The notes under the pieces: model-generated
Told to the model about the DNA's origin: nothing
The model's input: the letters and a program-made list of their open reading frames with translations, nothing else
Database searches by the model: none
Origin: an uncultured Eggerthella sp.
GTDB lineage: Bacteria; Actinomycetota; Coriobacteriia; Coriobacteriales; Eggerthellaceae
NCBI GenBank assembly: GCA_900542265.1
Contig: UQML01000005.1
Location: 29,810-93,809, forward strand
DNA: 64,000 nucleotides
Direction of reading: 5' to 3'
Program-made: the position numbers and the translations under genes
Part shown: one piece after another, positions 6,663 through 18,670 of the stretch
Layout of the letters: the number at the start of each line of letters is the position of its first letter
Numbering within the stretch: position 1 is the stretch's first letter

Positions 6663-7727
6663 CTATCTGCTCTCTACAAACACTACGCTTTTTATAGGGG
6701 CAGATCCCAAAACGACATCATCTTGATAAAAGACGGCATATTGCCCAGGCGCTGTGGGAGTTTGCGCCACATCAAATACTGCGGTGACACAACCGTCAGA
6801 TTCGGTAAAAATTCGTGCGCTAATCGCGTTCGACCGATAACGAATCTTGACACTACATATAATTCCATCGCCCTGCCCATAATCATACTGCTCGATACCT
6901 GCTTGCCACGTCAAAGGCCAGGTCGTCAATCCTGAAATAAGTGCATCATTTTTATACGCGAGCACAAGCACGTTGCGCGAAACATCCTTTTCAACAACAA
7001 ACACCGGCTCGCCAAGCGCAATACCAATTCCTTTACGCTGACCAATGGTGTAGCGATGAAGCCCTTGATGTTCTCCTACTACGCTTCCGTCACGCAGTTC
7101 CACCTTACCAGGCGTATCAGCAATCCCGCGCTCAAGCAAAAAATCACGGTAATCAGTAGGAACAAAACAAAGATCCTGACTTTCAGCTCGATGCGCTACA
7201 GGAAGTTCATGCTCATCTGCAAAGATACGCACGTCAGTTTTTTGCCACTCCCCTAACGGCAAAACAAGACGCGCTAGCTGGTCTTGGGTAAGTTGTGCAA
7301 GCATGTAGCTTTGATCTTTTGTCGTATCATTTGCTTTTGCTATAGCGTATCGTCCTGTTACTGGATCAAACACGCGTCGTGCATAGTGACCCGTTGCCAC
7401 AAAAGCAGCATCATAAGCATCTGCTACCTCAAGCAAAACAGGAATCTTGCAAAAGCGATTACAAAACACGCAAGGCGATGGGGTTTGACCTTGCGCACAT
7501 TGATCGCAAAAAGGAACAATAACCGTACGCTCAAAAACCTCAGTCGCATCGCAAACAATATGTTCAATACCAAGAAAAGCAGCTACTTCTGAAGCCGCCT
7601 GAATAGATGCGTTTGTTGCAGCATCATCAACAAAACGAGCAGTAACACCAATAACCTGGTATCCCTGCTCAATAAGGAGAGCGGCGGAAGTTGCGCTATC
7701 GACTCCGCCGCTTAAACCTAAAACTAT
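6663..7727 (-). CDS. mnmA: tRNA-specific 2-thiouridylase MnmA, full length, but with no canonical start codon. The annotated start is the ATA codon at 7725-7727 that sits where ATG is expected.
   Basis: The in-frame minus-strand translation from 7727 reads IVLGLSGGVDSATSAALLIEQGYQVIGVTARFVDD... (PP-loop SGGVDS) and continues without a stop into the track ORF 6663-7469, which itself begins at a GTG inside CVFCNRFC. There is no ATG, GTG or TTG between the upstream in-frame TAG (7770-7772) and the PP-loop. Confidence 0.7.
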   Translation of the reverse strand: MVLGLSGGVDSATSAALLIEQGYQVIGVTARFVDDAATNASIQAASEVAAFLGIEHIVCDATEVFERTVIVPFCDQCAQGQTPSPCVFCNRFCKIPVLLEVADAYDAAFVATGHYARRVFDPVTGRYAIAKANDTTKDQSYMLAQLTQDQLARLVLPLGEWQKTDVRIFADEHELPVAHRAESQDLCFVPTDYRDFLLERGIADTPGKVELRDGSVVGEHQGLHRYTIGQRKGIGIALGEPVFVVEKDVSRNVLVLAYKNDALISGLTTWPLTWQAGIEQYDYGQGDGIICSVKIRYRSNAISARIFTESDGCVTAVFDVAQTPTAPGQYAVFYQDDVVLGSAPIKSVVFVESR

Positions 7728-7749
7728 GCGAGAAGTATTTTCTGGCGTT

Positions 7750-8928
7750 TTACTCAGCCTCAGTCTCTTCTACTTCGACAACTTCAACTTCCTTAGTCTC
7801 AGGCTCCTCAACAGCAATTTCTAAACCAAGGTCAGCTGCAGCAGCTTTCATGGACAAGGAAATGCGACGGCGATCAGCATTAATGTCCATTACCTTAACC
7901 TTTACAGGGTCACCAACATGGACAACCTGTGCAGGTGAATCAATATGCTTTGCAGCCATCTCGGAAATGTGTACTAAGCCTTCAACATTGTCACCGAGCT
8001 CAATAAATGCACCGAAAGGAACAATCTTGGTAACGGTGCCATCAATAATGGTGCCAACAGGATAAGTCTCAACAAGCTTAGTCCAAGGATCCTCAGTAGT
8101 CTGCTTTAAGCCGAGAGAAATACGCTCACGCTGCAAGTCGACATCGAGAACCTCAACCTCAACTTCTTCTCCAACTTTAACAACCTCTGAAGGATGGTTT
8201 ACGTGGCTCCAAGAAAGCTCGGAGATATGAATCAAACCATCAATGCCACCAAGGTCAACAAAAGCACCAAAGTCTACAATTGAAGAAACCGTACCCTTTA
8301 AGCGCATACCCTTAGTAAGCTTCTCGAGGATCTCAGCACGTTCGTTCTTGCGGCCTTCCTCAAGGATGACGCGACGGGAAAGAACAACGTTATTACGGTT
8401 GCGATCCATCTCAATAACGCGAGCCTCAATCTCAGTGCCAAGGTATGCAGAAAGATCTTTAACGCGACGAAGATCAACCAAGGATGCAGGCAAGAAGCCG
8501 CGAAGTCCGATGTCAAGAATCAAACCACCCTTAACAACCTCAATAACTTCACCGGTTACTACTTCTCCAGCCTTGAATTTATCCTCAACCTCAATCCAAG
8601 CACGTTCATATTCAGCACGCTTCTTAGAAAGGATAAGGCGGCCATCTTTGTCCTCCTTTTGAAGAACAAGAGCCTCAAGTTTATCACCAAGATTTACGAC
8701 CTCAGAAGGATCGGCATCTTTACGGATTGAGAGCTCGCGAGCAGGAATAACGCCTTCACTCTTAAATCCAATATCTACCAACACTTCATCGTGCTCGATC
8801 TTAACGACGGTGCCATCGATCAAGTCACCTTCGTCGAAATCGGTCAGAGTGCCATCGATCATCTGGTTCATCTGCTCGTCAGAGATGTCGTCAAACTCGA
8901 TGACAGACGTGTTCTTGATTTCGGTCAA
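7750..8928 (-). CDS. rpsA: 30S ribosomal protein S1, 392 aa with an acidic C-terminal tail.
   Basis: It aligns with actinobacterial RpsA (DGTVVKIEHDEVLVDIGFKSEGVIPARELSI...GRLILSKKRAEYERAW). The start codon is TTG at 8926-8928 with AAAGGGG 7 nt upstream, and there is no in-frame ATG nearby. Confidence 0.9.
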   Translation of the reverse strand: MTEIKNTSVIEFDDISDEQMNQMIDGTLTDFDEGDLIDGTVVKIEHDEVLVDIGFKSEGVIPARELSIRKDADPSEVVNLGDKLEALVLQKEDKDGRLILSKKRAEYERAWIEVEDKFKAGEVVTGEVIEVVKGGLILDIGLRGFLPASLVDLRRVKDLSAYLGTEIEARVIEMDRNRNNVVLSRRVILEEGRKNERAEILEKLTKGMRLKGTVSSIVDFGAFVDLGGIDGLIHISELSWSHVNHPSEVVKVGEEVEVEVLDVDLQRERISLGLKQTTEDPWTKLVETYPVGTIIDGTVTKIVPFGAFIELGDNVEGLVHISEMAAKHIDSPAQVVHVGDPVKVKVMDINADRRRISLSMKAAAADLGLEIAVEEPETKEVEVVEVEETEAE

Positions 8929-10501: not shown

Positions 10502-11734
10502 CTATACGAGCTCTTCAAGAGAAGTTGCGCCTTTGACTGACCCATCATTAAGAGCTTGCTTGATTTCTTCATCGGTATAACCAAGCTCTTTCATAACTTC
10601 AATCGTTGCAGAACCCAACATTCCCGTAGGCGTAAAGACAGGCGTATCTTCGGAATCAAACTGAATAGGCACAGTTGGGATATTACGTTTTGATTTTGGA
10701 TAGGTAATTTTAACAAGATAATCATTATCCCACACGTTTTGATCTTCATAAACATCAAGAGGAGTTTGACAAAGCTCTATAGGAACGCCAGCATCCTTAA
10801 AGAGTTTAAGAGCTTCTTTCGCACTCATCTGGCCAATAGCAGCATCAAGAATGCCAACAACTTCAGGATTAAGTCCTTGTTCATTCATTTCAACACAGTT
10901 AACCAAACGAGGCTCATCAACTAAATCTTCACGTCCAATGAGTTTCATAATTTTGTTGTAATCGCGATCATATTCAGGATCACACATGGCAAGATACTTA
11001 CCATCTTTAGTCATATACACATTGTTGAATGGGCAAATGACTTCAAGACGACTCTTAGGATACGGATTGCCATATTGTGCAGAAATCATGCCCGTCATAA
11101 GCGTATAAACTCCTGCATGCTGGAGCGCGCACGTAACATACTCGCCTTCTCCCGTTTTTTCCCGACCGATGACAGCAGCACAAATTCCCGCAGCCAAAAA
11201 CATTGATGCTTGAAGATCTCCGTATCCATTGGTGGGGATCATGGGAGCATCTCCTCTATTTACGGTGGTTCCAAACACTCCACCGCGCGCCATATAACAC
11301 GTTACATCAAAACCAGGATCATCTTTTTCAGCACCCTTTTTTCCATAGCCTAGACCATGTCCCATAATGAGACGAGGGTATTTTGCATGTAACGTATCCC
11401 AATCCAGTCCTAATTTTTTGAGCGATTTGTTGCGCGTATTAGTAATAAATACATCCGCAGTAGCAAGCAGTTTATCCATGACCTCTGCGCCTGTTTTGCT
11501 CTTTAAATTCAAAGAGATAAACTTCTTATGCAGATTTACCATATCAAAGGCAAGATTTTCTTCATCCGACATAGGCATATTAAACACTGCTGCCTGCGTA
11601 ACACGACATGGATCACCTTTAGCTGCTTCAATCTTAATAACCTCTGCACCCCATTCACCCAAAACACGACCGGTTGCAGGTGTTGCCATATATGTCGTTA
11701 GGTCAATAACGCGCAAACCTTCCAATGGCTTCAT
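10502..11734 (-). CDS. CoA-transferase family III protein (CaiB/BaiF/Frc family).
   Basis: 410 aa with the family N-terminus MKPLEGLRVIDLT...LGEWGAEVIKIE. ATG with GGAGGGGG SD. It is monocistronic, flanked by 280-bp and 190-bp noncoding gaps. Confidence 0.75.
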   Translation of the reverse strand: MKPLEGLRVIDLTTYMATPATGRVLGEWGAEVIKIEAAKGDPCRVTQAAVFNMPMSDEENLAFDMVNLHKKFISLNLKSKTGAEVMDKLLATADVFITNTRNKSLKKLGLDWDTLHAKYPRLIMGHGLGYGKKGAEKDDPGFDVTCYMARGGVFGTTVNRGDAPMIPTNGYGDLQASMFLAAGICAAVIGREKTGEGEYVTCALQHAGVYTLMTGMISAQYGNPYPKSRLEVICPFNNVYMTKDGKYLAMCDPEYDRDYNKIMKLIGREDLVDEPRLVNCVEMNEQGLNPEVVGILDAAIGQMSAKEALKLFKDAGVPIELCQTPLDVYEDQNVWDNDYLVKITYPKSKRNIPTVPIQFDSEDTPVFTPTGMLGSATIEVMKELGYTDEEIKQALNDGSVKGATSLEELV

Positions 11735-11927: not shown

Positions 11928-12953
<1,026 letters not shown>

Positions 12954-13016
12954 TTAATTATACAAGTCTCTCGAAACGAGGTACTTACATTCTTTTAAAC
13001 GTGGCACAATAAGCCT

Positions 13017-13514
13017 TTAGCTCACCTTTGAACCACGCGACATAGCAATAATACCCGTACGAATAATCTCTTTAAGGCCATACGCACGCAACAAATCTTC
13101 AATACCCTTAAGCTTATGCTGCGTTCCCGTTGCTTCAATTGTCAGTGAAGTTTTACCAACATCAACGATCTTCGCGCGGAAGATGTTAGCAATTTCAATC
13201 ACCTCAGAGCGATGCTCAGGAGTGACATGCACTTTGTAAAGAACCAACTCGCGCTCAATAGCATCCTCAGAAGTAAGGTCGGTAATCTTATGAACACTAA
13301 TAAGCTTATGAAGCTGTTTGGTAATTTGTTCAAACGCGGAATCATCACACGCAAGCACGATAGTCATACGCGCTAACGTGGGGTCTTCGGTAGGACCAAC
13401 TGAGAGTGAATCAATATTAAAACCACGACGAGAGATTAATCCTGCAACACGAGATAAAACGCCTGATTTGTTTTCAACCAGAATAGATAGGATGTGCATT
13501 GATGTTTTTTCCAT
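13017..13514 (-). CDS. ilvN: Acetolactate synthase small (regulatory) subunit.
   Basis: 165 aa with ACT domain ILSILVENKSGVLSRVAGLISRRGFNIDSLSV. Its ATG lies 2 nt after the ilvB stop. Confidence 0.9.
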   Translation of the reverse strand: MEKTSMHILSILVENKSGVLSRVAGLISRRGFNIDSLSVGPTEDPTLARMTIVLACDDSAFEQITKQLHKLISVHKITDLTSEDAIERELVLYKVHVTPEHRSEVIEIANIFRAKIVDVGKTSLTIEATGTQHKLKGIEDLLRAYGLKEIIRTGIIAMSRGSKVS

Positions 13515-13516
13515 GA

Positions 13517-15502
13517 TTACTCCTCTCCATCCTGCTTGGTGGCTTCTTCGGGCGCTTTAGAAGCCATCTTAGTATTAATCTCATCAGCTTCACGCAAAGC
13601 CGCATCGGCTAAATCAAGATCGGCATTAATGCTTGCCGCTTCTTTAGCAGCTTGTACCGCATGAGCCTTTTCTACCGCAATAACCGGAATTCCTTCATCG
13701 TTAACATCTTCGGAAGGATCGATCATTTCAACAATAGAGCCAACATTAATAGCGCCAATAATATCATCAAGAGGCGCTCCTGGCGCAACCATAGGATATA
13801 CATTTTCATCGCGATCAATGCGCATATCGAGCAAAGCAGGGCAATCAGCAGCAAGCAAACGTTTAAAGGCAGCCTCTAATTGATCGGGATCACTTACCCG
13901 CTCAGCCTTCCAGCCATACGCATGAGCAAGCGCCACAAAATCTGGACATTCAGGCAATACCGTATGAGAATAGCGACCACCATAAAACAAGCCCTGCCAT
14001 TGATGCACCATACCTAAGGCAGAGTTGTTCATCAATAAAACTTTTACGTTGATGCGCTCGATAGCAGCAGTGGCCATTTCTTGGATATTCATCTGCAGTG
14101 ACCCATCGCCAGCAATACACACTACTTGCTTGTCAGGACAAGCTACTTTAGCACCAACAGCTGCCGGTAAACCAAAGCCCATAGTACCCAGACCGCCTGA
14201 AGTTAAAAACGTACGAGGCTTATCGCGATCAATATGTTGTGCAGCCCACATTTGATGCTGGCCAACTTCAGTAGTTACAATTGCGTCATCGGGAAGCATG
14301 CTTGAAAGTAAATCGAGCGCTGCTTCAGGAGAGATAGTACCTTTTTGCGTTGCAAGCGCTGGCTTATATAAAGGATGCTGAGCACGCCAGGCATTAACCT
14401 GTTCGAGCCATTCTTGAGTAATAGGAGCAACAGGGCTTTGATGAAGCTGATCTACCATACCTGACAAAATCACCTTCGCATCACCAACAATAGGAATCTG
14501 CGCAACACGATTCTTTCCTATTTCAGCAGGATCAACATCAATATGAATAACTTTTGCATGTGATGCAAAGTCCGACAAACGGCCTGTCACACGGTCAGAG
14601 AAACGAGCTCCTACCGCAATCAGTAAATCAGCATTGGTAAGTGCGTAGTTTGCGTATTGAGAACCATGCATGCCAACATGGCCCAAATTAAGAGGATGAC
14701 TTGCAGGGAATGCACCTTTGCCCATCAGTGTTGTTACAACAGGAATCTGCAACGCTTCCGCAACCTCAAGCAATTCCTGCTCAGACTGAGAAGCAATAAT
14801 GCCACCACCAATATAAAATATGGGTTTTTTGGCTGACTTCATCATCTCAATAGCTTGCTTAATCTGGCGTGTGTTGCCTTTAACAGTAGGTTTATAGGAT
14901 GGAATATTGATATCCTCAGGATATTCAAACACCATCTCTGCGCCTGCTAAGTCAGAAGGAATATCAATAAGCACTGGACCAGGACGACCAGAATTGGCAA
15001 TATAAAATGCTTCCCTAAAGGTACGGGTCATATCGTCTAAAGACTGCAGTAAATAGGAATGTTTTACTACGGGCATCGTAATACCAACAATGTCAGATTC
15101 TTGGAAAGCGTCAGTACCAATAATATGACGGGGAACCTGACCAGTAATAACTACCATGGGAACTGAGTCCATATAAGCCGTAGCAATACCCGTTACCGTA
15201 TTAGTGGCACCAGGTCCTGAAGTAACAATAACAACACCTGTCTTACCTGTAGCGCGTGCATATCCATCAGCCTCATGGGTAGCACCTTGCTCATGGCGTG
15301 CAAGTACGTGATGAATTTTGTCAGAATCATAGAGTGCATCATAGATCTTGATAGCTTGTCCTCCCGGATAGCCAAAAATCGTGTCGACACCCTCAGCTTC
15401 AAGAGAGGCAATAACAGCTTGCGCGCCTGTCATTACCTTCCCTTGTTTTTCAGTATTTGGGCCCAATCCCATTTTTTTTTCGTATTCTTTATCGATGATC
15501 AT
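13517..15502 (-). CDS. ilvB: Acetolactate synthase large subunit, with an extra ~75-aa acidic, Ala-rich C-terminal tail and a short N-terminal extension.
   Basis: 661 aa with TPP-enzyme motifs GYPGG...GPGATN...GDG. The start ATG overlaps the ilvD stop as ATGA at 15499-15502. Confidence 0.9.
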
Positions 15503-17157
15503 CCGAAATATGCCCCCTTATCGGCGCTTGAAACCAAACGCGCATAACGCGCCAAAACTCCCGTTGCGTGCTTAGGTGCTGGTGGTTCCCAAGCTACACG
15601 ACGTGTTTCGAGCTCTTCATCAGAAACTTCTAAGACCAAAGATCCTGCATCAATATCAATGGAAATAATGTCACCTTCATGCACCAAAGCGATAGGACCA
15701 CCTGCTTGCGCTTCTGGGCTTACGTGTCCAATAGCAGGACCTTTGGTTGCACCAGAAAAGCGGCCATCGGTAATAAGGGCAACAGACTTATCGAGTCCCA
15801 TGCCACAAATTGCTGAAGTTGGAGTTAGCATCTCACGCATACCTGGACCACCTGCTGGACCCTCATAGCGGATAACAACAACATCACCAGGATTGATCTT
15901 GCCGCCAAAAATTGCCTCACATGCTTCTTCTTCAGAATTAAAGACGCGCGCAGGACCAGTATGCTTACGCATATCATCTGAAACAGCCGATTGTTTAACC
16001 ACACCACAGTTAGGTGCTAGATTTCCGCGCATAACACGCAATCCACCCACTTCACTGTAAGCGTTTTCAACAGTGCGAACAATCTCACCATCAACAAGCG
16101 GTGCTTGCGCAATCCACTCCCCCATAGTTCCATGGCAAGTAAGAGCATTCTCATCCAAAAGGCCATGACGACCAAGTTCGCCAATGATAGCTGAGATGCC
16201 ACCAACCTTATTAAGGTCTTGAATATGAAGTGGTCCAGCAGGAGCAATACGCGTAATGTTAGGTATCTCCGAACAAATTTCATCCCAATCATCCATAGTG
16301 ATAGGGCATCCTGCTGCATGGGCGATAGCGGTTAAATGCAGCATAGTATTAGTTGAACCACCAAAAGCCATATCAAGCGCCATACCATTATGGATGGATG
16401 CTTTATTGATGATATCGAGTGCAGTAATGCCTTTATCAAAAAGCTCCATTACCTTCATGCCTGCATGTTTAGCAAGACGAATGCGCTCAGAAAATACAGC
16501 AGGGATTGTACCGTTACCAGGAAGAGCAATACCTAATCCTTCAGAGAGGCATGCAATAGAGTTTGCGGTAAACATGCCTGAACAACTACCGCAGGTAGGA
16601 CAAGCAGTGTTTTCAAACCATTTGCACTCTTCTTCAGTCATCGTACCAGCGGTAACTTGCCCAACAGCATCAAAGAGGGTATTGAGATCAGTCTGATTTC
16701 CGCAGGTATCTTCGCCAGCAAGCATAGGGCCGCCAGAAATTAGCACTGTCGGAATATTTAAGCGACAGGCAGCGATAAGCATGCCAGGCACAACTTTATC
16801 ACATGAAGGAATCAACACCATCGCATCAAATTGATGACCCTGAACAGCACATTCGACCGAGTCAGCAATAACCTCTCGACTTGTAAGCGAATAATGCATA
16901 CCATCATGATTCATAGCAATACCGTCACAAACACCAATCGTGGTCATTTGTACGGGCGTACCACCTGCCATGCGGACACCTGCTTTTACTGCATCGGCAA
17001 TAGTCTGAAGATGAATGTGTCCGGGGATGATTTCATTTTGCGATGAGATTACGGCGACTAAGGGACGCTCAAGCTCTTCATCAGTAAATCCATCAGCTTT
17101 AAGCAATGAACGATGGGGTGCACGGGCCAGTCCCTTTTTAATTGCGTCACTACGCAT
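15499..17157 (-). CDS. ilvD: Dihydroxy-acid dehydratase.
   Basis: 552 aa, ILVD/EDD family ([15 protein letters not shown]). It is the first gene of the ilvD-B-N-C operon. Confidence 0.95.
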
Positions 17158-17733
17158 TGTACTTCTACCTACCTCTCTATTCTTTTATGACACCTTATAA
17201 AGGTAATGTCATATTCTCCTTTATGTATTGCGGTTGCGCGAGAAAAGCACTCCATATAAAAAAATCCTCATGCACCATTCATACGCTGCATCAGGACCAT
17301 ATACTCACTAACCAGATAGACATCTATCCAAGTTAAGACTAATCACGGAGTCACCGATTCAACGTACTAGCCTCATGTCTCATTGAAGATCATCCAATAC
17401 TAAGACATCAGACGTTCTGACTGAATAGCTCAAAGGTGCCTTTCAGACCGTCCACCATCGGTTTTCACCAACCACCGACTCTCTATAAATGATGGATTCG
17501 TCCCTACTTTTCCTCATCAACGCTTTTCTATGTTTGACCATCATAGCACGGAATGCTTGCTTGACTAGAGCTTTCTTTTCATACGTATCAGCAAAGTTTG
17601 CCAACGACGTAACCAACAAGCAAAACTACCAAATTACTCTGTTCTTTTTAATACAGTGCATCAAAACATATTATTTGTTACACTCACTCATTGATAATGC
17701 ACCTTTTATATGGAATTCAGGTTATCCCCCGCT

Positions 17734-18621
17734 ATGAATCTTGCTCATTTAACCTATTTCAAAACGCTCGCTGAAACAAAGACGTATCGTGATACTGCCT
17801 ATGAGTGTTCTATTTCTTAATCCACTCTTTCAAATGCCATTAACGGGTTAGAAAAAGAACTTGGTACATCTCTTTTTGTTCGTAATAAAGGCTTAGCTGA
17901 GCTAACCGAGACCGGGCACATCTTTTATACTTACGTTGACACCTCACTCCGTTTTCTCAATAACGGCATTGATATTGTTAAAGAACGCTCGGGCAAACAA
18001 ATCCGCGAGATTACTATTGGAACCATTTTGTCTGCTCAAAGTCACGATTGGTCAGAACTAATTTATGACTACCGCAAACAAGTTCATGGTAATGTGCAAA
18101 TCAATGTTGTTCAATCAACGACTCCAGAAATTCTCAAAGATATTAAAGCGGGGAAAATCGATGTCGCTTTCTGCGGATCCCTTGGTCCTGATCCAGATTT
18201 AATGCAATGCCCTCGCTGGTCACAAGGCGTTGTTCTCGTCGTCAACAAAGATCATCCTTTTGCCAAACGCGATCATATATCACTAACCGAATTAGTTAAT
18301 CACTACCTGATTTCCTATACCTTAGATGGCCCAATTGGCCCACCACTTACAGCACTTATTAAAGGAAGAGATCTCACTGTAGATTGTTTATATAACGATG
18401 AGATTACGCTTGCTTCGATTGTTGCATCCAATCCCGACATTATGGCTATTGCTTGTAATTCATGGCTTTTAAGCTCGTATGGAGATCACATTAAGCTTGT
18501 TTATATTGAAGAAGCTGATGATGATTTTAGACAAATCTTTTTTAGCTATTTAGCCAATTCGGAAAAACCCCGCATTGTCGAAGAGTTTATCAAGCTCGTA
18601 ACTCAAAGTTGCATTTCTTAA
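17734..18621 (+). pseudogene. LysR-family transcriptional regulator interrupted by an in-frame TAA at codon 29 (17818-17820), replacing the invariant Gln of the HTH SQS motif.
   Basis: From ATG 17734: MNLAHLTYFKTLAETKTYRDTAYECSIS*STLSNAINGLEKELGTSLFVRNKGLAELTETGHIFY..., a typical LysR HTH, continuing in the same frame into the track ORF 18028-18621 (the LysR substrate-binding domain). Confidence 0.8.
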
Positions 18622-18635
18622 AAGCCCTGTATAAA

Positions 18636-18670
18636 ACAAATGACCGCCTAAGGCGGTCATTTGTTTTCTT
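18636..18670. terminator. Bidirectional intrinsic terminator after the LysR pseudogene.
   Basis: AAAACAAATGACCGCC-taa-GGCGGTCATTTGTTTT, a perfectly symmetric hairpin with flanking A-tract and T-tract. Confidence 0.75.

Follow-up and report, generated by a model that had tools for sequence, protein, structure and literature searches.

Recurrent truncation of a constrained LysR-type regulator gene next to the ilvDBNC operon in an uncultured gut Eggerthella species

We analyzed a stretch of 64,000 nucleotides from an uncultured Eggerthella sp. (NCBI GenBank assembly GCA_900542265.1, contig UQML01000005.1, positions 29,810 to 93,809 of the forward strand; the whole stretch is referred to as the window) and focused on a gene for a LysR-type transcriptional regulator, which is transcribed divergently from the ilvDBNC operon and is interrupted at codon 29 by an in-frame TAA (allele Q29*). 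An original prediction, made from the letters of the sequence alone, had read this gene as a recently inactivated regulator of the ilv operon. Our results indicate that Q29* is very probably a genuine and recent loss-of-function mutation in one strain, and that a constrained regulator is being knocked out repeatedly, probably as it is conditionally dispensable or costly. In fact, the gene has been knocked out by different nonsense or frameshift mutations both in the window's species, in which at least nine distinct truncating alleles segregate, and in at least one other species where it also adjoins ilvD. The coordinates of all features are collected in Table 1; contigs and proteins used for comparison bear our numbers L001, P0091 and so on.

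The frame from ATG 17734 reads MNLAHLTYFKTLAETKTYRDTAYECSIS*STLSNAINGLEKELG..., and an upstream ATG at 17710 serves as an alternative start that gives a 303-amino-acid (aa) form, called in some assemblies. The TAA at codon 29 is the sole internal stop of this frame, whose natural stop is the TAA at 18619-18621. With Q29 restored, the protein matches Pfam HTH_1 (PF00126, 53.9 bits against a cut-off of 26.6, residues 3-62) and LysR_substrate (PF03466, 59.1 bits against a cut-off of 28, residues 91-292), and thus has the N-terminal winged helix-turn-helix (HTH), the C-terminal substrate-binding domain and the length of about 300 aa that mark the LysR family. The earliest in-frame start past the stop is the TTG at 18028 (codon 99), and no restart keeps the DNA-binding domain. 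Translation is therefore predicted to end after 28 residues, with no DNA-binding product, which makes Q29* a null allele by its reading frame. The palindrome just past the gene is likely to be a bidirectional terminator, and the LysR gene would hence be monocistronic.

We then searched 5.8 billion proteins for homologs and obtained a cluster of 166 sequences at at least 90% identity. The original prediction had placed a single in-frame TAA in the recognition helix of an otherwise intact gene and taken the lesion to be recent. This description holds, since the translation shows just one internal stop and the protein with Q29, otherwise exact, is present on 51 contigs as a 295-aa call and on 31 contigs as a 303-aa call; one of the intact 295-aa records is titled 'MAG: LysR family transcriptional regulator [Eggerthellaceae bacterium]'. 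Two of its details had to be adjusted. The glutamine, described as the invariant one of an S-Q-S motif, is strongly conserved but not universal, being Q in 68 of 81 full-length family members (84%) and P in 11 of them; the motif is usually [T/A/S]-Q-[P/S]-T-L-S, with T-L-S nearly or fully invariant among the 81, and S-Q-S is the version of the window's lineage. Moreover, the supposed single transition from CAA to TAA does include C to T at 17818, but it is joined by a second, adjacent C to T at 17817. All nine of the other species-level sequences compared, which the prediction had proposed to inspect for the glutamine codon, read TCC CAA at this place, whereas the window reads TCT TAA, and the change probably arose as a single CC to TT tandem event. 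As a separate observation, the 9-mer ATTTCTTAA at the premature stop (17812-17820) is the same as the natural 3' end of the gene (18613-18621, C-I-S-stop). This identity arose through the two adjacent C-to-T changes and is probably a coincidence, and a templated or tandem mutational event may also account for it.

The closest comparisons fall on both sides of the mutation. Contig L004, which is 97.7% identical to the window in nucleotides (nt), has TCC CAA at codons 28-29 and differs in the rest of the LysR gene at only six places (five synonymous changes and one Leu/Pro replacement), and L022, a metagenome contig of 331 kb, likewise has CAA at codon 29. Scanning the JGI metagenomes for either allele returned one match, with CAA, which is too sparse for an allele frequency. 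The same TCT TAA was found in two more assemblies, ENA ERZ28622808/SAMN06110423 and Logan SRR5127726 (with a 197-aa call on L024 and a 139-aa call on L026), both 100% identical to the window over 6.4-6.6 kb, while other strains are 0.7-3.4% different from it. The TAA shared by the assemblies of three pipelines rules out an assembler glitch. The window's ilvD protein is present on three contigs only, those with Q29*, and the three Q29* assemblies thus represent one strain and probably one sample that went through three pipelines.

Intact alleles predominate, but truncation of the gene is not confined to the Q29* strain. Two truncated proteins in the database, of 197 aa and 139 aa, come from contigs whose lesions differ when compared with the intact reference, and in all at least nine distinct truncating alleles segregate in the species. 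These include a second nonsense mutation, Q122*, which occurs on two haplotypes, a 10-bp deletion, and frameshifts of one base spread from codon 47 to about codon 278 (Table 1). Two of the contigs, L023 and L027, are 99.84% identical, yet they carry different frameshifts. The locus does not look like a phase-variable one, in that Q29* is a substitution and the other lesions, including the 10-bp deletion, are scattered over at least nine sites. Codon 122 (CAA, 18097-18099) was struck three times in other strains, by Q122* on two haplotypes and by a 1-bp deletion, and may mark a local hotspot of mutation. In one of the Q122* contigs (L031) the ilv promoter and T-box leader seemed to have lost 80 bp, but this supposed deletion is a scaffold gap of ten Ns and was discarded.

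The neighbouring genes on the same contigs served as controls. On the contigs with a broken LysR gene, five indels shift the frame within 8 kb of LysR, while about 16 kb of coding sequence of ilvD, ilvB, the hexapeptide-transferase gene and the PNP gene contain none. Clustering at 90% gives 166 distinct LysR proteins, compared with 54 for the hexapeptide transferase, 20 for ilvN and 33 for ilvC, and the members listed of these three control clusters are full length unless they lie on contigs shorter than 2.4 kb. Polymorphism of LysR within the species comprises 13 synonymous and four missense sites, and three of the four missense sites lie in one copy that is already frameshifted. Between species, the LysR gene of the window and that of L001 (82% identical in nt, 94% in aa) differ by a nonsynonymous divergence (dN) of 0.038 with saturated synonymous sites (dS), so that the ratio dN/dS is about 0.009. 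In the same comparison the ratio is 0.013 for ilvD, 0.007 for RF1, 0.05 for the hexapeptide transferase, 0.10 for PrmC and 0.12 for PNP. By these ratios LysR ranks with the most strongly constrained proteins of the locus, and its lesions look like recent events at the tips of the tree. As a side result, divergence between the window and L004 (17296-20688) is very uneven: it amounts to 0.23% for the ilvD-LysR spacer and 0.9% for LysR, rises to 1.7% for the spacer that follows and reaches 3.8-4.5% for the genes of the hexapeptide transferase, PNP and PrmC. Either constraint on the leader or a recombination boundary near LysR would fit this pattern.

We further looked at homologs outside the window's species. 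The LysR of the L020 species is 49% identical and likewise faces ilvD; in this species contig L033 lacks one base behind an A7 run, around codon 52. The protein cluster of L033 contains at least six distinct truncated forms on contigs of 18-75 kb, among them three kinds of N-terminal junction, forms that restart at codon 75 or codon 143, and two different C-terminal frameshifts around codon 178. In another ortholog (L012, 70% identical), known from one Logan contig, codon 25 is TGA, which precedes the position of the window's stop by four codons.

A different kind of interruption was observed in the homolog of the Eggerthella sp. CAG:1427 type, a locus distinct from that of the window, in which Pro replaces the conserved Gln (ITPSTLS) and the hinge contains a poly-G tract of G10, G12 or G9 (L005 6081-6090, L006-L008, L009 5958-5969, L010 2067-2075, L011 219-227). 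The tract is out of frame in seven of seven assemblies, always by exactly one surplus G, and in two strains the tract lengths are three Gs apart with the frame state unchanged. The HTH half has a dN/dS of 0.017 at a dS of 0.93 between strains, and the C-terminal half is conserved too. These features suggest a functional gene that relies on slippage, frameshifting or phase variation, or else systematic miscalling of the homopolymer.

Whether loss of the regulator affects the ilv operon depends on how this operon is controlled. As the original prediction stated, the gene is divergent from ilvD; the start of ilvD and the ATG of LysR are separated by 576 bp (about 577 bp in the prediction), and about 270 bp of this spacer are filled by a T-box leader and its terminator (17258-17529). 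At the gathering threshold Rfam reported tRNAs only, and the T-box surfaced with an E-value threshold. The scores of RF00230 in five lineages are 73.7-79.8 bits (E 1e-14 to 1e-16), which is below the gathering threshold of 93, with the full model (positions 1-219) aligned. The leader is located upstream of ilvD in four relatives as well (L001 3500-3729, L014 5430-5641, L019 6587-6788, L020 6407-6695); in L014 it lies between a CoA-transferase gene and ilvD, 2.2 kb from the regulator. When the five leaders are aligned, compensatory changes appear in the distal part of Stem I, in Stem III and in the terminator, and the Stem I motifs are present (specifier-loop AGUA/GAA, AG bulge and distal loop), followed by the terminator, upstream of an amino-acid gene. 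Between the window and L004 there is one difference in 438 bp of spacer, and the ilv leader is thus intact in the Q29* strain. The idea that ilv regulation was recently lost, which the prediction had offered as one outcome, therefore does not follow from the stop codon; rather, with promoter and T-box leader intact, tRNA-dependent control of ilvDBNC would be expected to persist in the null strain.

The specificity of this leader may be unusual. The 3' side of the specifier loop is GAAAGGCA in the window, L001 and L020, GAAAGGCC in L019 and GAAAGCCA in L014. When the specifier position was read by the rule of TBDB (PMC7778990), we obtained GGC (Gly), or GCC (Ala) in L014, and the +1 frame gives GCA or GCC (Ala). 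A Leu, Ile or Val codon appears in no specifier frame (GGC, GCC, GCA, AGG) of the five leaders. The canonical UGGN bulge was not located in them, and the position equivalent to UGG varies (UGG, AGG, AAG). The leader may be an atypical T-box, or its tRNA specificity may be one that is unexpected for an ilv operon. The T-box of Bacillus subtilis ilv-leu is a Leu one with a CUC specifier (Marta et al. 1996, as cited in PMC2494555). The leader of the window resembles it in the Stem I features, the intrinsic terminator with its U-run and the place upstream of a branched-chain operon, but differs in scoring below the Rfam threshold, in having a specifier that is never Leu, Ile or Val, and in that no canonical UGGN bulge was found. 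Our literature search returned nothing specific on an ilv T-box in Actinobacteria.

The original prediction had also compared the regulator with IlvY. IlvY is a LysR-type activator of ilvC in Escherichia coli, which is divergent from ilvC with overlapping promoters and whose activation depends on acetolactate or acetohydroxybutyrate, and to our knowledge E. coli ilvC has no T-box leader. The window's gene is similar in that a LysR-family protein is divergent from a branched-chain amino-acid biosynthesis gene. The differences are that it faces ilvD, ilvC being the fourth gene of the operon, that the spacer holds a T-box leader, and that homologs in other lineages pair with CoA-transferase or enoyl-CoA hydratase (ECH) genes. 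The NCBIfam model of IlvY (NF008722) gave 60.3 bits against a cut-off of 246 and covered only residues 1-158. No named LysR equivalog model of NCBIfam was passed; the best-scoring one, AlsR, gave 101.6 bits against a cut-off of 430, over residues 1-194 only. Bacillus AlsR is likewise divergent from an operon that starts pyruvate-to-acetolactate chemistry (alsSD, acetolactate synthase/decarboxylase), but with a score so far below the cut-off the match reflects generic LysR similarity and not orthology. By these models the regulator is not an IlvY relative in any specific sense. Since the ilv operon has a T-box leader of its own, an IlvY-like annotation by position alone is unwarranted.

The linkage to ilv genes on which the comparison with IlvY leaned is real in several relatives and missing in others. 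The immediate divergent neighbour of LysR is ilvD in the window and in L001 (94% aa identity), L013 (72%), L019 (56%), L020/L021 (49%) and L033. Since synteny in these genomes extends over the entire neighbourhood (ilvCNBD ... PNP-PrmC-RF1-TrxB-Trx-ThrRS), adjacency is not very informative by itself. In L014-L016 (61% aa), ilvD and LysR are separated by genes for an enoyl-CoA hydratase and a family-III CoA-transferase, and a mere 95 bp or so lie between the hydratase gene and the regulator. The LysR genes of the CAG:1427 type (55-58%) and of Eggerthella sp. YY7918 (55%) are divergent from ECH and/or CoA-transferase genes, with MFS and aminotransferase genes next and no ilv genes nearby.

Upstream of its own start, the LysR gene has a block of 57 bp conserved in the species of L001 (17651-17707), which we regard as a candidate LysR promoter/operator. 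Its GTGCAT/ATGCAC arms, 35 nt apart, form the only dyad found upstream of LysR, and no T-N11-A dyad with at least five of six symmetric positions was found in the divergent promoter region. A 10-mer in the block, TTGTTACACT, is common to the window and L014. The LysR start is about 170-190 bp from the promoter of the ilv leader, and between the window and L001 the leader with its promoter (to 17582) and the block are conserved, unlike the intervening stretch. LysR may regulate the ilv promoter.

Taken together, the most likely explanation is that LysR is needed over the long run while being dispensable or costly in some hosts or under some conditions, so that null alleles would keep arising, persist briefly and not become fixed. 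In the null strain, LysR input would be lost at the ilv promoter, at its own promoter or at a distant target (for example CoA-transferase genes), while ilvDBNC would keep its own promoter and T-box. Recurrent loss of function is familiar from other conserved regulators, global or accessory, of host-associated bacteria, namely rpoS in E. coli, lasR and mexT in Pseudomonas aeruginosa, and agr in Staphylococcus aureus. The case described here shares with them the long-term conservation and the many independent nonsense and frameshift alleles, each confined to strains and at different sites; it differs in that the organism is an uncultured gut commensal known from metagenome assemblies alone. Several points weigh against this explanation. 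As the Q29* assemblies probably come from one sample, the allele would have a single origin, and their agreement is one of assemblies and not of reads. The truncated share is rough, at about 20 of 123 contig records among the cluster members listed (15 of 166), or 13 of 116 without the two truncated forms that we had retrieved deliberately, and in these counts one sample can recur under several sources. Several frameshifts fall in short homopolymer runs (T4-T6, A5, A7), in which errors of metagenome assembly may occur, although the presence of nonsense alleles and of a 10-bp deletion, together with the clean flanking genes, speaks against a general artefact. No operator motif shared across lineages was found upstream of LysR when 10-mers were compared with one mismatch allowed, beyond the one shared with L014. 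Finally, the data fit positive selection for loss and a tolerated, mildly deleterious loss equally.

The alternatives to this explanation differ in what they say of the stop and of the gene. A sequencing or assembly error, with a true codon CAA and an intact gene in the window strain, would agree with TCC CAA in every other strain, with a source that is probably a metagenome-assembled genome, and with Q29* assemblies that may share one read set. It is nevertheless very unlikely, because the identical allele in at least two further assemblies from different pipelines, over kilobases of perfect identity, shows that the stop is not an assembler error; in addition, two adjacent bases and not one are changed, the flanking coding sequence of such contigs is free of indel noise, and other strains have their own, different lesions in the gene. 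The original prediction had kept error as an option and rightly considered readthrough improbable. For the latter, programmed readthrough or reassignment would have TAA read as Gln and a full-length regulator made, and the stop is indeed placed exactly at a conserved Gln codon, one transition from CAA. But TAA ends 31 of the 49 long open reading frames in the window, and the LysR gene itself, no other interrupted gene was seen in the window, its three tRNAs are ordinary and none has a TTA anticodon, and close strains use CAA. Moreover, the frameshifts and the 10-bp deletion of other strains are beyond rescue by readthrough. We consider this account scarcely credible, and codon recoding appears to be excluded by TAA being the main terminator in the window.

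Two further alternatives accept the losses and explain them differently. One holds that the regulator was orphaned and decays neutrally, its ancestral target, an ECH/CoA-transferase operon, having been lost. In its favour, L014-L016, L017/L018 and L005/L009 have ECH and/or CoA_transf_3 as the immediate divergent partner, the window has neither gene between ilvD and LysR, and truncating alleles are many. However, the ilvD-adjacent arrangement without them reaches lineages of 49% aa identity, so that any such loss is ancient, and no ECH or CoA-transferase remnants were detectable in the spacer 17158-17733 (tblastn, E up to 10); the match obtained instead was a paralogous CoA-transferase, 36% identical, at 10556-11734, downstream of ilvC. 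With a dN/dS between species of about 0.01, as low as that of ilvD and RF1, and polymorphism within the species that is mostly synonymous, neutral decay of an orphan is quite unlikely, and it was on the between-species ratio that we rejected it. The other alternative is more plausible but still doubtful. It makes LysR an activator specific to ilvDBNC, with nulls selected where branched-chain amino acids are plentiful. The ilvD adjacency kept in the lineages named above, the recurrent nulls in two ilvD-adjacent species and the distance of about 170-190 bp from the LysR start to the ilv leader promoter all agree with it. Against it, adjacency is weak evidence in a syntenic neighbourhood, the operon has its own T-box, the L014 regulator is separated from the ilv leader by two genes, the window and L001 show no conservation from about -50 to -120 relative to the ilv promoter, and the protein fails the IlvY model.

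A lone nonsense allele in a metagenome-derived genome is routine, and the surrounding pattern matters more than the allele itself. Constraint between species like that of RF1, many knock-outs within the species and intact neighbours form a signature that is used to find conditionally selected genes of host-associated bacteria. In uncultured Eggerthellaceae of the gut it singles out a regulator that is uncharacterised, and public metagenomes alone suffice to follow it up. The recurrent knock-out of this constrained LysR adds a new case to a known evolutionary pattern; our literature search returned nothing specific on recurrent LysR loss in Eggerthellaceae. The functional picture was also corrected, in that the ilv operon is under cis control by a T-box. 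More tentatively, LysR loss may have been positively selected repeatedly in human-gut Eggerthellaceae, as parallel and short-lived adaptive knock-outs in at least two species and with a poly-G-controlled version in a third lineage; the adjoining ilvDBNC operon may in addition be under an atypical T-box that reads an Ala or Gly tRNA. If so, the repeated loss would point to a conditionally costly circuit that couples the host environment to the ilv locus, to CoA-transferase pathways or to both.

Table 1. Features of the LysR-ilvD locus in the window and truncating LysR alleles in the species
Feature	Position	Strand	Strain or contig	Evidence or remark
LysR-type transcriptional regulator gene, predicted null allele, 295 codons	17734..18621	+	window strain	frame translation, Pfam, database matches
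Premature TAA, codon 29 (Gln CAA in all other strains), HTH recognition helix	17818..17820	+	window strain
Synonymous C to T, TCC to TCT	17817	+	window strain only	with 17818, a CC to TT tandem change
Residual open reading frame from TTG, codon 99	18028..18621	+		197 aa, effector-binding domain, no HTH; gene-caller protein P0091
Perfect palindrome and T-run just past LysR stop	18633..18667			aaacaaatgaccgcc taa ggcggtcatttgttt; 35-nt reverse self-match
Block upstream of LysR start	17651..17707			kept in L001 species; inverted repeat GTGCAT 17656-17661 / ATGCAC 17697-17702
Sigma-70-like promoter just upstream of T-box leader	17540..17567	-		TAGTCA-16-TATGAT with TG; kept in L001
T-box leader of ilvDBNC	17309..17529	-		75.6 bits, E 1.6e-16, model positions 1-219
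Leader terminator	17258..17296	-		UCCUGAUGCA ... UGCAUGAGGA then U7; kept in five lineages, stem base changes
ilvD (dihydroxy-acid dehydratase)	15499..17157	-		first gene of divergent operon
ilvB, ilvN, ilvC	11928..15502	-		ilvB 13517-15502, ilvN 13017-13514, ilvC 11928-12923
Allele Q29* (CAA to TAA)			window strain
Allele 10-bp deletion, codon 40			L025
Allele 1-bp deletion, codon 47			L023
Allele 1-bp insertion, codon 98			L027
Allele Q122* (CAA to TAA), two haplotypes			L028 and L029 (mutually identical), L031 (1.2% different)
Allele 1-bp deletion, codon 122			L030
Allele 1-bp deletion, codon 146			L032
T6 run, -1 frameshift at about codon 269	18538..18543	+	other strains	P0094, 272 aa, 7 contigs
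A5 run, -1 frameshift at about codon 278	18563..18567	+	other strains	P0095 and P0098, 4 and 2 contigs

Two minor observations concern other genes. Family-III CoA-transferase genes are mobile around the locus: the paralog in the window (10502-11734, minus strand), inserted downstream of ilvC, is 36% identical to the L014 copy, the positions concerned are 5796-7906 in L014 and 5796-7073 in L015, and in L015 the CoA-transferase is broken into two pieces of 229 and 167 aa. Elsewhere in the window, an MnmA-like tRNA 2-thiouridylase gene (6663 to about 7745, minus strand) has a frame that is open through the SGGVDS P-loop, with no ATG, GTG or TTG upstream of this motif. Its first canonical start is at about codon 98, which gives a 268-aa call that lacks the first 98 positions of the HUP domain. 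Its start may be a non-canonical one (CTG at about 7749-7751, right after the S1 stop, or ATA at about 7725-7727), or it may have been lost.

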